DNA from: an uncultured Clostridium sp.
Lineage (GTDB): Bacteria > Bacillota > Clostridia > TANB77 > CAG-508
Reading direction: 5' to 3'
Assembly: GCA_947572725.1 (NCBI GenBank)
Contig: CANPDB010000005.1
Coordinates: 2,402 to 66,401 of the forward strand
Length of the DNA: 64,000 nucleotides
This document shows, piece after piece, positions 16,727 through 28,393 of this stretch (positions are counted from its first letter, which is position 1; every line of letters begins with the position of its first letter). The position numbers and the translations under genes were made by a program. Under the pieces are notes generated by a model that was not told the DNA's origin, made no database searches, and was given only the letters and a program-made list of their open reading frames with translations.

Positions 16727-19700
16727 CTATTTATCTTTCAATCCAAAAGTAATAAATTTTACAATTTTATTATCTACACTTTTTATATCTTCTTCTGTAA
16801 TATTATCTAAGTTCCAAATATTGTTATCAAAACCTAATGTATTGGTATAGAAATCTTTTGTTAACAATTCTGCATTTGTAGCTGTTTTGATACCATCTAT
16901 TGCATCACTTGCGATTCCATTTGCTTCTGCATTTTCATAGCAATTTTGGAAAGTTGCTACTGCTCCTTCTGCTACCGTTGCTATAAACTTGTTAATTGGA
17001 TTGCCATTTTGTTCTAGTTTATGAATCATAGCTGAATTTTTAACTATTAATTTTCCCTCTCCTACTTTGGCAACAAATCCACCCCAAGTTGCTGCATTGC
17101 TAGCTGAACCACAACTTACATGCATATTGGCTATTACATTTTCAATGGTAACATCTCCTTTGGTTAAAGACACTACCCCACCATTTTGTATAGCATTTCC
17201 ATATATCTCTCCTTGTACATAACAATTCTTAATACTTCCGCCTGTTTTAACAGCAACCATTGCTGCCATTTGACTACCAAAGTTTCTACCATTTAGATAC
17301 GCTTTTTCAATATGAATATTTTCATAAGTACAATTCTCATCTTCTAAAATCATTGCAGAAACACTAGTCTTTCCTAATACAACCATATTGGTAAATTTCA
17401 TATTTGAAAATGTTGCATTTGTTGCTTTTAGTGCAAAAGCTGATACTCGAGTTCTATATGGATTACTTTTACTCCAATCAATAAATCCATTTTTCCATTC
17501 TACTCCATAAGCATAGTCTTTCATTTTTAGTCTATCTACTTTTCCTGAAAAATGTTCAAATAGTGTTGCATTTGCTAGGTTAGAAATAGTATGGTTATTA
17601 CCTCTAATTTCTCCAAAAAATTCTCCTGATATTACTGCCCATGATCCTTTCCAATCATACTTAATATTAGAAAAGTCTATATCTTCTTCGATGGTAAATA
17701 TAGCATCTGGATGTGCTTGTAACAATTCTTTAAATTCTTCTGCAGAATGTATTGCATAAGTATCTACCTTATTAATTAGTGTTTTTTCATTTGGATCCCA
17801 ATTCTTTAGTTTTGGAATACATTCTTGGCTTACATAACTTAAATCCCAAACTTCGGTATCAAATCCTAAAGTATTACTATAAAATGCTCTATCGATAATA
17901 TTTTGTTTGGTTGCTACACTTATTTTTCCTGTAAAGTCAATACCTTCTCTTGTTAAAGTCGAAATTCCTGTGTTTTCTTCGTATTCGTAATTTCCTTCAA
18001 AACCTTCAAACTGGTCACTTGCAGTTCTTCCATCAAACTTGTATTGTTTCATTTGATTTCCTAATGCTATATTATTCTTAACAATACTATTTGTCTCTGC
18101 TTTTCCTATAAATCCTGAAACTCCTGCATTACCAAGTGCTTTTAATGTACTAAAACAATTTATAACACTAGATTGTCTTAAAAATCCAACTAATCCTCCT
18201 ATGTCTTGATTTCCTTTAGCATCTCCTAGAGAATAACTATTTTCAATAATTGTATTGTTAATTGCTTCTCCTACCAATCCTCCACAAGCTGAGCCTGTTG
18301 CTGCTATTATTCCATTACTACTACTTGCTTTGATATGAGATGTTCCTACATAACCAACTAGTATTCCTACTCGACCAGCTCCTGTTATATTTCCTCCAAT
18401 AATATGCACATTTTCTAAATCACTAGAGGTCATTGTACCAATTAAGCCACCTGTATTATTGTTTTTATTGGTTACTGTAATATCTTTTGCTACTAGATTT
18501 CGAATTTCTACTTTGTCTGCTATTTTAGCAAACGCTCCTACATCTGTTTCATTTTTATTGATATTGCTTCCTTCTAATTTTAAATTAGTAAGTTTTGCAT
18601 AACGAATGGTATGGAAGATTGGAACAGTATTTCCTCTTAAGCTATGATTTTTTCCATCGATTTCTCCTATGAATTCACCACTAATTATGGTTGTTGTACT
18701 TTCTAAGTTAGATAAGTCAATATCATTTTCTAATGTAAAGTTTTCATCTGGATATTGTGTTATTAAAGTTTGGAATTCTTCTTCAGTACGTATTGTATGA
18801 ACTGGTATTCCAATTTCCATTGCTTCATTTGGGTCATTATTTTTTAATGTTGGTGTCTTGTGAGACTCTATTGTGCTAAAGTCCCAAATGTCTTCATTCC
18901 AGCCTAAAGTATTGGTATAGAAGTCTTTACTTGTTACATTTTGTCTGTTTGCTACACTTATTTTTCCTGTAAAGTCAATATCTTCTCTTGCCTCAGTAGC
19001 AATACCTTTGTTTCCTTCGTATTCGTAATTTCCTTCGTATTTTTCTAGTTGTTCTTGAACTGTTTTACCATCAAATTTATAATGCTGTCTAACTTGATTT
19101 CCTAATGATATATTATTTCTAACTGTAGAGTTTGTAATAGATTGCCCTACAAATCCTGCAACGCTATCTGTTCCATCTACTTTGGTTGTACTCAAAGAAT
19201 TGCTTATTGTAGATGCCTTACTTAAAAGTCCTACAAATCCTCCAACATTTTGATTTCCAGTTGCCTTTCCTCTAGAATAACAGTTTTGAATAGTTGTTCC
19301 ATTAGTTACTTCTCCCATAAAGCCACCAATAGAATTACCTGTACCTGTTGCAGTTCCATTACTACTACATGCTTTTATGTTAGAATATCCAACATAACCT
19401 GCAAATGTTCCTACACGATTAATTCCTGTTACATTTCCTCCTATGATATGTACATTTTCTAGGTCTCCATATGTCATAATACCAATTAATCCACCAGTAT
19501 CATCTCTTCTGTTTACAACTGTAATATCTTTTCCTATTACATTTTTAAGTTCTATATTATCTGCTATTTTAGTAAGTGCTCCTACATCTGTTTCATTTTT
19601 ATTTATGTTACTTCCTTCTATTTTTAAGTTTTCAATATAGGTATGTCGAGCCGTATGGAAGATTGGTACTTTGTTTCCTCTTAAAGTGTGGTTATTTCCT

Positions 19701-27442: not shown

Positions 27443-28393
27443 TTATTTTAATTCAAATAAATCAATTAAGATTAATTTTATTTGTGCCAAATCATTTATG
27501 CTAATTTCGCCATCATTATCTATATCTGCTGCTTTTGATTCTATTCCTGTTAATAATTTAGTTTCAATAAGATGTAATTTCACTTTAGCCATATCATTAA
27601 TTGAAATTTCTGAATCTCCATCTGTATCTCCTATTACTATAAGAGTAAATTGTAATGTAGAACCTACTTTTAATTTTGTACCTGTACTAATTAAACTATC
27701 ATCTTGTAATACATTTCCATTTTCATCTGTAAATACCATTTGTGGATCTGTTGTTACATTTTCTACTTTTACATTTTGCTTAAATTGTTGTACTGTTGTT
27801 TTTGGTAAAATTCTTGAAATATAACCTTGTTCTATTGTATATTTATCTGAAGTTATTTTTTCTGGTTGTGGTGGTTTTGGTTCATCTGGTTTTTCTTGTT
27901 GGTCTTCAATAATATTAATTGTCACTTTTATTTCACTTAAATTTATATCTTTCTTTCCTTCAGATGTTACAACATCTTTAAACTTAACATCTGTTGTACA
28001 TGCTTTTACTCCTTCTTTTGCTTTTAAAGTAATCTTTACTATTTCTTCTGGAGCTTTACTTCCTGCTTTTTTAATAGCGATAAACTCTCCCGTATCCTTA
28101 TTATACTTTAATTCTTCCCAATCATTTTGGCATACAAAGTTTTGTTCAAGCACTTCTTCAAAAATATTCTTATCATACTCCAAAGTTGCCTTATAAGCAT
28201 TAAGTCCATTTTTAATTTCTTGATATTGATCAAACTTCAAAGTAACTATTACTTCTTGTCCTGCCTTTAGATCATTTACTGAACTACTTACAATTGCAAT
28301 TAAATTTTCTGCTGCTAATAAACTACCTGCTAGCAGAATTAAAATAATAAATACAATAATATTACCTACTATTTTTTTCATTGTGGTATTCAT
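27443..28393 (-). CDS. Signal/TM-anchored protein with a cohesin-like N-terminal domain and a C-terminal dockerin
   Basis: The cohesin-like pattern (LKAGQEVIVTLKFD...AYKATLEYDKNIFEEV...IVKITLKAKEG) is an inference. The dockerin loops GDTDGDSEISINDMAKV and DIDNDGEISINDLAQI are clear. Confidence 0.65.
   Translation of the reverse strand: MNTTMKKIVGNIIVFIILILLAGSLLAAENLIAIVSSSVNDLKAGQEVIVTLKFDQYQEIKNGLNAYKATLEYDKNIFEEVLEQNFVCQNDWEELKYNKDTGEFIAIKKAGSKAPEEIVKITLKAKEGVKACTTDVKFKDVVTSEGKKDINLSEIKVTINIIEDQQEKPDEPKPPQPEKITSDKYTIEQGYISRILPKTTVQQFKQNVKVENVTTDPQMVFTDENGNVLQDDSLISTGTKLKVGSTLQFTLIVIGDTDGDSEISINDMAKVKLHLIETKLLTGIESKAADIDNDGEISINDLAQIKLILIDLFELK

Follow-up and report, generated by a model that had tools for sequence, protein, structure and literature searches.

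The stretch of DNA analysed in this work (hereafter the window) comprises 64,000 nucleotides (nt) of an uncultured Clostridium sp. (assembly GCA_947572725.1, contig CANPDB010000005.1, positions 2,402 to 66,401 of the forward strand) and carries on its reverse strand two adjacent genes, the upstream one encoding a protein of 316 amino acids (aa) with a cohesin and a dockerin, here called the adaptor, and the downstream one a giant protein of 3564 aa related to the Zmp and immunoglobulin A1 (IgA1) proteases of peptidase family M26. Both open reading frames (ORFs) lie exactly where an earlier note, made from the letters of this DNA, had placed them. The window has a GC content of about 27-28%, and, judged from the frequency of stop codons, an open frame of 3564 codons in DNA of 28% GC is not a product of chance. 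We consider it reasonably probable that the two genes constitute a surface-display module for a giant Zmp/IgA1-type (M26) zinc metalloprotease in an uncultured rodent-gut Clostridium.

Domain calls on both proteins were judged against the curated cut-offs of Pfam, and all of them pass. Among the families that the earlier note had proposed, Cohesin, Dockerin_1, Peptidase_M26_N, Peptidase_M26_C and Glug were recovered, whereas no match to Big_2, or to any other Pfam family, was obtained in the repeat region of the giant protein. This protein begins with a single hydrophobic segment, and a scan of its sequence found no LPXTG motif. The two-loop dockerin that follows (class G; 40.7 bits against a cut-off of 22.9, E 2.7e-10) agrees with what had been noted before, whereas the segment ahead of it, previously taken for a transmembrane segment, looks like a signal peptide or a second signal-anchor and is not necessarily a permanent membrane span. 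Duplicated F-hand Ca2+-binding loops are visible in the sequence of both dockerins of the locus (type I), and dockerins are among the PDB matches of both. Behind the repeats, Peptidase_M26_N matches in four stretches (154 bits, the best at residues 915-1158) and Glug reaches 66.9 bits; Peptidase_M26_C comes next, in the order expected for the family, with 92.8 bits against a cut-off of 22 and with profile positions 2-748 of 792 covered. The only HExxH motif of the protein, HETGH, falls precisely at the zinc site reported earlier, in an M26-like domain flanked by GLUG modules as had been claimed, and E1897/D1898 lie 28 residues downstream of its second histidine. By self-comparison, GLUG modules 2-4 are 43-61% identical to one another, and module 5 shares about 27-33% with them.

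Residues 947-2089 of the giant protein align to the pneumococcal IgA1 protease structures 6XJA, 6XJB, 7JGJ and 7UVL with E values of 1e-42 to 1e-44, a similarity carried mostly by the M26_N/GLUG part. Among related loci, the orthologues at L048 and L002 have an identical HETGH, and the giants of L052 and L004 have HEFEH and a different subtype of catalytic domain, so that two catalytic subtypes stand behind one type of N-terminal dockerin. In the comparison with L048, no part of the giant gene is better conserved than the M26 core.

For the adaptor, public gene calls place the start at 28381, giving 312 aa. Its Cohesin match (PF00963) covers residues 37-152 with 33.4 bits against a cut-off of 24.1, and its Dockerin_1 match (PF00404; class S) reaches 33.9 bits against 22.9. 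The AlphaFold2 (AF2) model, built with 35 homologues, has a predicted local distance difference test (pLDDT) score of 87.5, which exceeds 90 in the cohesin module with its 9 strands. The top PDB matches of this model in Foldseek are the Clostridium perfringens cohesins 2JH2, 2VO8 and 2W1N (template-modelling score 0.74-0.80 on the target, E about 1e-7), followed by dozens of cellulosomal cohesins. The predicted fold is that of a nine-stranded jelly-roll cohesin, and the description of the 316-aa protein as a cohesin with a dockerin of its own is thus upheld by Pfam as well as by the model. The unit formed by the X module and the dockerin also terminates NPCBM and SH3/Big_2 proteins in relatives (tblastn and blastn, C-termini of L050 and L004 proteins). 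Homologues of the adaptor (n = 251) are mostly about 310 aa long and share its layout. The 21-nt spacer between the two genes holds three stop codons and no terminator-like site, and a strong promoter-like site lies about 50 nt upstream of the adaptor gene, inside the mobile element described below. The in-frame arrangement of the two genes was considered as potentially meaningful and dropped, since the pair is not in frame at other loci.

Wherever the contig of a relative reaches far enough, the adaptor gene is directly followed by a giant gene. In L004 (2665 aa), L048 (3545 aa) and L052 (2647 aa) this gene encodes an M26 giant that has its dockerin at the N-terminus, and in L002 and L050 the adaptor is followed by a dockerin-led giant gene that runs off the contig. 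The genes upstream of the pair vary by species and encode a penicillin-binding protein (PBP), a GGDEF/EAL protein, an SMC protein, a cadherin-like protein, an NPCBM protein or another M26 giant; therefore, the two genes are linked to each other rather than to their surroundings. A protein database search with the N-terminal 450 aa of the giant returned only fragments ended by their contigs, some of them annotated with Cohesin plus Dockerin. At L052, a transglutaminase-core protein with a dockerin is encoded directly downstream of the M26 giant (19144-20981).

In other relatives the two halves are found in a single precursor. With 34-47% identity to P0145, the fusion taken as reference, no fewer than 13 protein clusters share the order signal peptide, adaptor-type cohesin, low-complexity linker, LPXTG-like motif (IPKTG, LPHTG, LPQTG, LPKTG, NPQTG and others), hydrophobic segment, Lys-rich loop, second hydrophobic segment, class-G dockerin (KGELNxDG...ADMNxDGxITVTDL) and the repeats of the giant. 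The LPXTG motif and transmembrane segment of the fusions occupy the position that the X-dockerin has in the window adaptor, and the beginning of the window giant (Lys-rich, hydrophobic, SKGELN) corresponds to their loop and second transmembrane segment, with residues 14-36 aligning to this second transmembrane segment or second signal peptide. Streptococcal Zmp proteases are built from a signal peptide, an atypical N-terminal LPXTG motif, two transmembrane segments, a second signal-peptidase site, repeats and the catalytic region, and the N-terminal part of this topology is needed for the localisation of IgA1 protease (PMC3518915). The fusions have this topology, to which a cohesin is added in the part that would stay linked to the wall and a dockerin in the part that would be released; the window giant, with one hydrophobic segment and no LPXTG motif, lacks the combination of signal peptide, LPXTG motif and two transmembrane segments that is typical of the family and present in the fused relatives. 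The idea of a display function put forward in the earlier note is reinforced by these natural fusions.

Class comparison separates the dockerins of classes G and S into clearly different sequence classes. Class G, with its asymmetric loops, is strongly conserved across species and fusions and is confined to the M26 giants and the fusions. Class S is near-symmetric, follows the X module, and is found on the adaptor as well as at the C-terminal end of the giant NPCBM/F5_F8_type_C proteins of L003 and L004. A third class ends the SH3/Big_2 protein of relatives, and a strict search for the two-loop motif gave no additional dockerin in the window. The AF2 model of the P0145 fusion has a predicted template-modelling score (pTM) of 0.68, with pLDDT 94-98 in the cohesin, 88-97 in the dockerin and low confidence in about 100 linker and transmembrane residues. 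Arithmetic on this pTM indicates that the dockerin is confidently placed relative to the cohesin, and the model thus suggests a confident arrangement of cohesin and class-G dockerin. The adaptor modelled alone yields three confident domains with a pTM of 0.47, which suggests that its class-S dockerin does not dock onto its own cohesin. On the grounds of the fusions, the synteny and the pTM of P0145 set against that of the adaptor, the adaptor cohesin and the class-G dockerin of the giant are the most likely pair.

The giant NPCBM/F5_F8_type_C proteins (L004 3354-9485 and L003 4080-8735) end in the X-dockerin class of the adaptor and are encoded just upstream of the adaptor gene, and no catalytic domain, glycoside hydrolase (GH) domains included, was recognised in them. 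The earlier statement that GHs are absent stands for the surroundings of the pair among the scanned ORFs of the window, and has to be qualified by the presence of these giants, with the adaptor's dockerin class, beside the pair in sister loci.

Relatives also encode a 342-aa cohesin protein that ends in LPKTG or MPKTG, a transmembrane segment and a Lys-rich tail, and adjoins a sortase gene. It was found in at least 86 species genomes, among them the metagenome-assembled genomes (MAGs) from which L002 and L004 come and one from mouse that is close to the host of the window. A membrane-anchored protein with a cohesin-like N-terminus is encoded in relatives as well, and the window itself has a sortase gene at 42234-42977. 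The receptor of the class-S dockerin is likely a surface-anchored cohesin encoded elsewhere in the genome. No more than one cohesin per protein was found, either in the window or in any of the related loci examined. A conserved cluster (L050 4168-9645 and L052 186-5287) brings together the LPKTG/MPKTG cohesin, the sortase, an SH3_3/Big_2 protein with the third dockerin class and a transmembrane-anchored cadherin-like protein with a cohesin-like N-terminus, and points to a small surface cohesin network of several specificities in the clade.

The pair is carried, as had been supposed, by a mobile element: together with a serine-recombinase gene it forms a precise 14.2-kb insertion (element 1) in a PG_binding_1 gene. 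The break in this gene falls exactly between two codons, 85 (up to 38450) and 86 (from 14513 on), and the gene is intact in L048. The ends of element 1 are imperfect inverted repeats (14514-14537 and 28688-28712, 20/24 positions), and its left junction is spanned by an independent DNA contig. In L054, the 5' fragment of PG_binding_1 abuts the upstream region of the adaptor, which, together with the split gene, indicates that the block 14514-28720 is itself an insertion. The alternative drawn from L054, a native pair next to which only a second element is mobile, was rejected, because PG_binding_1 is split around the whole 14.2-kb block. The recombinase, encoded at one end of element 1, has Resolvase, Recombinase and Zn_ribbon_recom domains, and is frameshifted: its catalytic N-terminal part with YCRLS lies in another frame than the 502-aa ORF, in which the Pfam Resolvase match starts at profile position 46. 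Since the gene is frameshifted, excision is not expected, and since the same frameshifted sequence is also present in an independent run (X1), element 1 is probably immobile now.

A second insertion (element 2, 9.7 kb) occupies the same site; close to its ends lie perfect inverted repeats of 12 bp (28735-28746 and 38428-38439). Its cargo consists of a fragmented serine recombinase (three ORFs, 28827-30413), a DNA invertase (32227-32859), an HNH protein (36686-38260) and a further five ORFs without a family match; PHROGs and PADLOC searches of this cargo gave nothing beyond the HNH protein and the DNA invertase. L054, with an adaptor protein of 98% identity, lacks element 2, as do most DNA runs and metagenomes; the element landed later, at the junction of element 1, and is not part of the protease system. 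Nucleotide identity to L048 is 68-77% in the adaptor gene, 80-87% at the N-terminus of the giant, 92-97% in the M26 core and 65-78% in housekeeping genes, a gradient that supports lateral movement or recombination. Near-identity DNA searches of plasmid and phage collections gave no match to the region of 14-31 kb, which is therefore not a known plasmid or phage.

According to its housekeeping genes, the window belongs to a large clade of uncultured low-GC Clostridia with genomes of about 1.55 Mb, whose MAGs come from the gut of rabbit, mouse, human (Hadza), chicken and goat, and in which Candidatus Scatovivens faecipullorum is one named species. Gut metagenomes of mouse and rat contain the locus in near-identical form, as do several metatranscriptome assemblies of the mouse gut, the contigs of which cover both the adaptor and protease genes, are fragmented by strain variation and may include DNA carry-over.

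Table 1. Coordinates of the features of the adaptor-protease locus and of the two insertions, in positions of the window.
Feature	Position	Strand	Basis and remarks
PG_binding_1, 3' part (codons 86-225)	14094..14513	-	tblastn against the intact L048 gene, 71% identity
Element 1, 14.2-kb insertion	14514..28720		recombinase, protease and adaptor genes only; splits the PG_binding_1 gene
Large serine recombinase of element 1	14644..16250	-	Pfam, three-frame translation; frameshifted near nt 16090
Giant Zmp/M26-family metalloprotease gene	16727..27421	-	3564 aa, uninterrupted ORF
Four C-terminal GLUG/M26_N-like modules (residues 2180-2525, 2525-2874, 2874-3224, 3224-3564)	16730..20884	-	self-comparison, GLUG motifs
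M26_C catalytic domain (residues 1487-2170)	20912..22963	-	Pfam Peptidase_M26_C
HETGH zinc-binding motif (residues 1865-1869)	21815..21829	-	motif scan
M26_N/GLUG module 1 (residues 915-1440)	23102..24679	-	Pfam M26_N and Glug, GLUG motifs, alignment to PDB IgA1 protease
Repeat region (residues 100-920), about 8 weakly similar beta-rich modules	24662..27124	-	self-comparison, 23-33% identity
Dockerin class G (residues 45-97), KGELNDDGVIDYRDVDLLERHL...ADMNNDGQITVTDLTLLIQKI	27131..27289	-	Pfam Dockerin_1
N-terminal hydrophobic segment (residues 14-36), then ...VIYA/ATT	27314..27382	-	hydropathy
Intergenic spacer, 21 nt, GGAGG ribosome-binding site	27422..27442	-	between adaptor stop and protease ATG
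Adaptor gene, 316 aa: signal peptide, cohesin, Pro/Glu linker, small beta X module, class-S dockerin	27443..28393	-	Pfam, AF2
Dockerin class S (residues 255-306), near-symmetrical loops DTDGDSEISINDMAKVKLHL and DIDNDGEISINDLAQIKLIL	27476..27631	-	Pfam Dockerin_1
X module (about residues 179-253), beta-rich, directly before the dockerin	27635..27859	-	AF2 secondary structure
Cohesin module (about residues 30-162)	27908..28306	-	Pfam, AF2, Foldseek
Promoter-like site, TTGAAA-17-TATAAT with TG	28442..28470	-	consensus match only, 11/12 matches
Element 2, second 9.7-kb insertion at the same site	28728..38449		flanked by TTGGTTT at 28721-28727 and 38450-38456
PG_binding_1, 5' part (codons 1-85)	38450..38704	-	tblastn against L048, 80% identity

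Other features of the window were observed along the way. A second GLUG protein (5016-8486, reverse strand; 1156 aa, Big_2 and Glug) has an N-terminus resembling a prepilin-type signal (KNSG/ITLIALIV...) and carries neither a dockerin nor an LPXTG motif. The pyruvate formate-lyase activase gene downstream of pflB (12990-13785, forward strand) is frameshifted, its N-terminal part with CxxxCxxC and its C-terminal 155 aa lying in different frames, and is either a pseudogene or an assembly error. On the reverse strand there are a tetrahydrofolate (THF) riboswitch (42130-42224, 61.5 bits) upstream of an operon with an ECF S-component, a FolC-like Mur ligase, an ABC protein and CbiQ, a PD-(D/E)XK transposase-family ORF (46911-47549) adjoining a PBP gene, and a 613-aa protein with an FGE-sulfatase-like domain at its C-terminus (60405-62246). 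A 152-bp AT-rich stretch with internal inverted repeats (49778-49929), located between gcpE and a response-regulator gene, is 91.5% identical to L055 7990-8142, where it lies between the adaptor and giant genes, and loose metatranscriptome contig ends at 27441 resemble it; it occurs as a single copy in the window, has no Rfam match and may be a small mobile repeat.

In the display module that we propose, the partners, the anchoring route, the proteolytic activity and the substrate, be it host IgA, mucin or another glycoprotein, are what we infer. Both proteins would be secreted, and the cohesin of the adaptor would bind the class-G dockerin that the mature protease carries at its N-terminus. 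The class-S X-dockerin of the adaptor would in turn plug into a separate surface-anchored cohesin encoded elsewhere in the genome, so that the protease would be held on the cell surface in a non-covalent and Ca2+-dependent manner, where its targets would be proteins of the host or of the lumen, O-glycoproteins or immunoglobulin being the most likely ones. In the fused sister precursor, sortase would fix the cohesin to the wall and signal peptidase would free the dockerin-protease, after which the two halves could re-associate. The operon, with its own promoter-like site, would travel as a 14.2-kb large-serine-recombinase cassette.

Several observations weigh against this proposal. As to the enzyme, neither the M26_C region nor the neighbourhood of HExxH, when searched alone by pairwise sequence comparison, has a meaningful match in the PDB, and the NCBIfam models of ZmpB (the best, 184 bits), ZmpA, ZmpC and ZmpD score 115-184 bits against cut-offs of 3000, which leaves the giant outside the orthologues of ZmpA, ZmpB, ZmpC and ZmpD. 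The Pfam profile of M26_C is nevertheless covered nearly end to end; the catalytic domain is thus remote from the characterised M26 enzymes and represents a distant paralogous branch of the family, with E1897 as a candidate third zinc ligand. As to the assembly, the docking of cohesin and dockerin is deduced from pTM only, and tblastn found no anchoring cohesin in the window. Moreover, the LPKTG cohesin of relatives adjoins the protein with the third-class dockerin, and its partner could therefore be this third class rather than class S. Finally, none of the metatranscriptome contigs bridges the adaptor and protease genes, and the assembled contigs may include DNA.

Three other explanations were weighed. 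The remoteness of the catalytic domain, and the fact that more than two thirds of the giant consists of repeats or GLUG modules, would fit a protein that is mainly an adhesin or surface fibre, built of Ig-like repeats and five GLUG beta-helix modules, in which M26_C is catalytically irrelevant or non-proteolytic; we hold this to be quite improbable, as the HExxH motif is intact and identical in orthologues and the M26 core is far closer to that of L048 than are the adaptor and the housekeeping genes. The partners could also be exchanged, with the dockerin of the giant binding the LPKTG-anchored cohesin directly and the adaptor acting as a mini-scaffold, the cohesin of which binds class-S X-dockerins, either its own, forming chains, or those of NPCBM-type enzymes. 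In cellulosomes, enzyme dockerins can bind anchoring cohesins directly; class S is found on several proteins, and its pairing with the adaptor cohesin would allow polymerisation. This exchange nevertheless seems unlikely to us, given that the fusions tie the adaptor-type cohesin to the class-G dockerin in at least 13 diverged proteins, that the adaptor gene almost always lies directly upstream of the giant, and that self-docking is not predicted for the adaptor alone at its pTM of 0.47. Lastly, the cohesin and the dockerin may not pair at all, the giant being a released or membrane-tethered protease and the small protein having another role, for example ligand binding. There are, to our knowledge, many non-cellulosomal cohesin-like and dockerin-like modules for which no partner has been demonstrated; we nevertheless give little credence to this explanation here in view of the tight synteny across species with different flanks, the repeated fusion of both modules, the strong conservation of the class-G dockerin and the high pTM of the fusion model.

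Within the display reading, we tentatively advance a bolder idea, which is possible but on balance not what we would expect: that the cohesin-dockerin pair is a re-docking latch for Zmp-type proteases, split here into two genes on a mobile cassette. An ancestral precursor would be cut by sortase at the N-terminal LPXTG motif and by signal peptidase after the second transmembrane segment, and the wall-linked cohesin would recapture the freed dockerin-protease, giving a non-covalent, Ca2+-dependent and potentially releasable tether. The window would represent a further step, in which the precursor was split into two genes and LPXTG was swapped for the X-dockerin, so that the protease becomes part of a broader network of surface cohesins, and the whole was packaged as a 14-kb recombinase cassette moving between gut Clostridia. 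If true, this would answer, for this branch, how Zmp/IgA1 proteases with a processed N-terminal LPXTG motif stay on the cell.

Zmp/IgA1-type proteases are major host-interaction factors of streptococci, and the present data place the M26/Zmp family in abundant uncultured Clostridia of the gut of rodents and other animals, joined to cellulosome-style parts. If the pairing is true, cohesin-dockerin display would extend from glycan-degrading enzymes to a giant protease of the immunoglobulin or mucin class, a concrete and testable mechanism of surface retention would be available for N-terminal-LPXTG proteases, and the compact, laterally mobile cassette identified here could change the way in which a commensal deals with host IgA or mucus. 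A further use of the orthogonal dockerin classes could be as parts for protein assembly.

Among known systems, the streptococcal M26 enzymes (IgA1 protease/ZmpA, ZmpB, ZmpC and ZmpD) share with the window giant the M26_N/GLUG part, an M26_C domain with HExxH and long variable repeats ahead of the catalytic unit, and share with the fused relatives the atypical N-terminal signal peptide, LPXTG motif, two transmembrane segments and second signal-peptidase site. They differ in that the LPXTG/transmembrane hairpin of the fused relatives is flanked by an additional cohesin and dockerin, and that in the window the halves are separate genes with an X-dockerin in place of LPXTG. The giant further has four extra C-terminal GLUG modules, no detected G5 domain and a catalytic domain too diverged for pairwise detection, and with a rodent-gut Clostridium as host, the human IgA1 hinge is not the obvious substrate. 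As for the mobile part, large-serine-recombinase elements (Tn4451/Tn5397-type, SCCmec-type and phage-type integrases) resemble element 1 in the protein with Resolvase, Recombinase and Zn_ribbon_recom domains encoded at one end, the precise insertion inside a gene, the dyad-symmetric ends and the tandem accretion of a second element at the same site, whereas element 1 carries only a two-gene display module as cargo, has no transfer or replication genes and has a frameshifted recombinase.

On the side of the cohesins, the non-cellulosomal "toxin complex" of C. perfringens has its cohesins inside GHs (Adams et al., 2008, as cited in PMC12997984). It also comes from a low-GC Clostridium, its single cohesins are the best structural matches of the adaptor, and its dockerins stand on very large host-glycan-targeting CBM32/F5_F8 proteins, as they do in the related loci; here, in contrast, the cohesin has a 316-aa adaptor of its own or is anchored by sortase, the cargo being an M26 protease whose dockerin is N-terminal. 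The "mucinolysome" of Limousia (Acutalibacteraceae), described in 2025-26, comprises multi-cohesin scaffoldins, an LPXTG anchor scaffoldin, adaptor scaffoldins with C-terminal dockerins, many dockerin-bearing GHs and some dockerin-bearing peptidases (PMC12997984; preprint PMC12632915). It likewise represents a cohesin-dockerin assembly for host-glycoprotein degradation in a gut anaerobe, but belongs to another order; single-cohesin proteins and a one-to-one gene pair are found here, and the window and the related loci examined contain no multi-cohesin scaffoldin. The terms M26 and GLUG are absent from the main text of the Limousia paper, and no cohesin-LPXTG-dockerin fusion is described there (PMC12997984). 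Cellulosomal adaptor scaffoldins with an X-dockerin, such as CipA of C. thermocellum with its XDocII and ScaA/ScaB of A. cellulolyticus, combine in a similar way one or more cohesins with a C-terminal X-dockerin that binds a cell-anchored cohesin, and their cohesins are among the Foldseek matches; the adaptor differs from them in its single cohesin, the lack of a carbohydrate-binding module (CBM) and of plant-cell-wall enzymes, and its protease cargo. In the collection of papers searched, none joins a dockerin or cohesin with M26, Zmp or IgA protease. Host-glycan-directed non-cellulosomal cohesin-dockerin systems are thus already known from C. perfringens and Limousia, and what looks new is the N-terminal dockerin on a Zmp-type protease with its one-to-one single-cohesin partner, the fused precursor in which LPXTG and two transmembrane segments lie between cohesin and dockerin, and the packaging of the pair in a serine-recombinase cassette.

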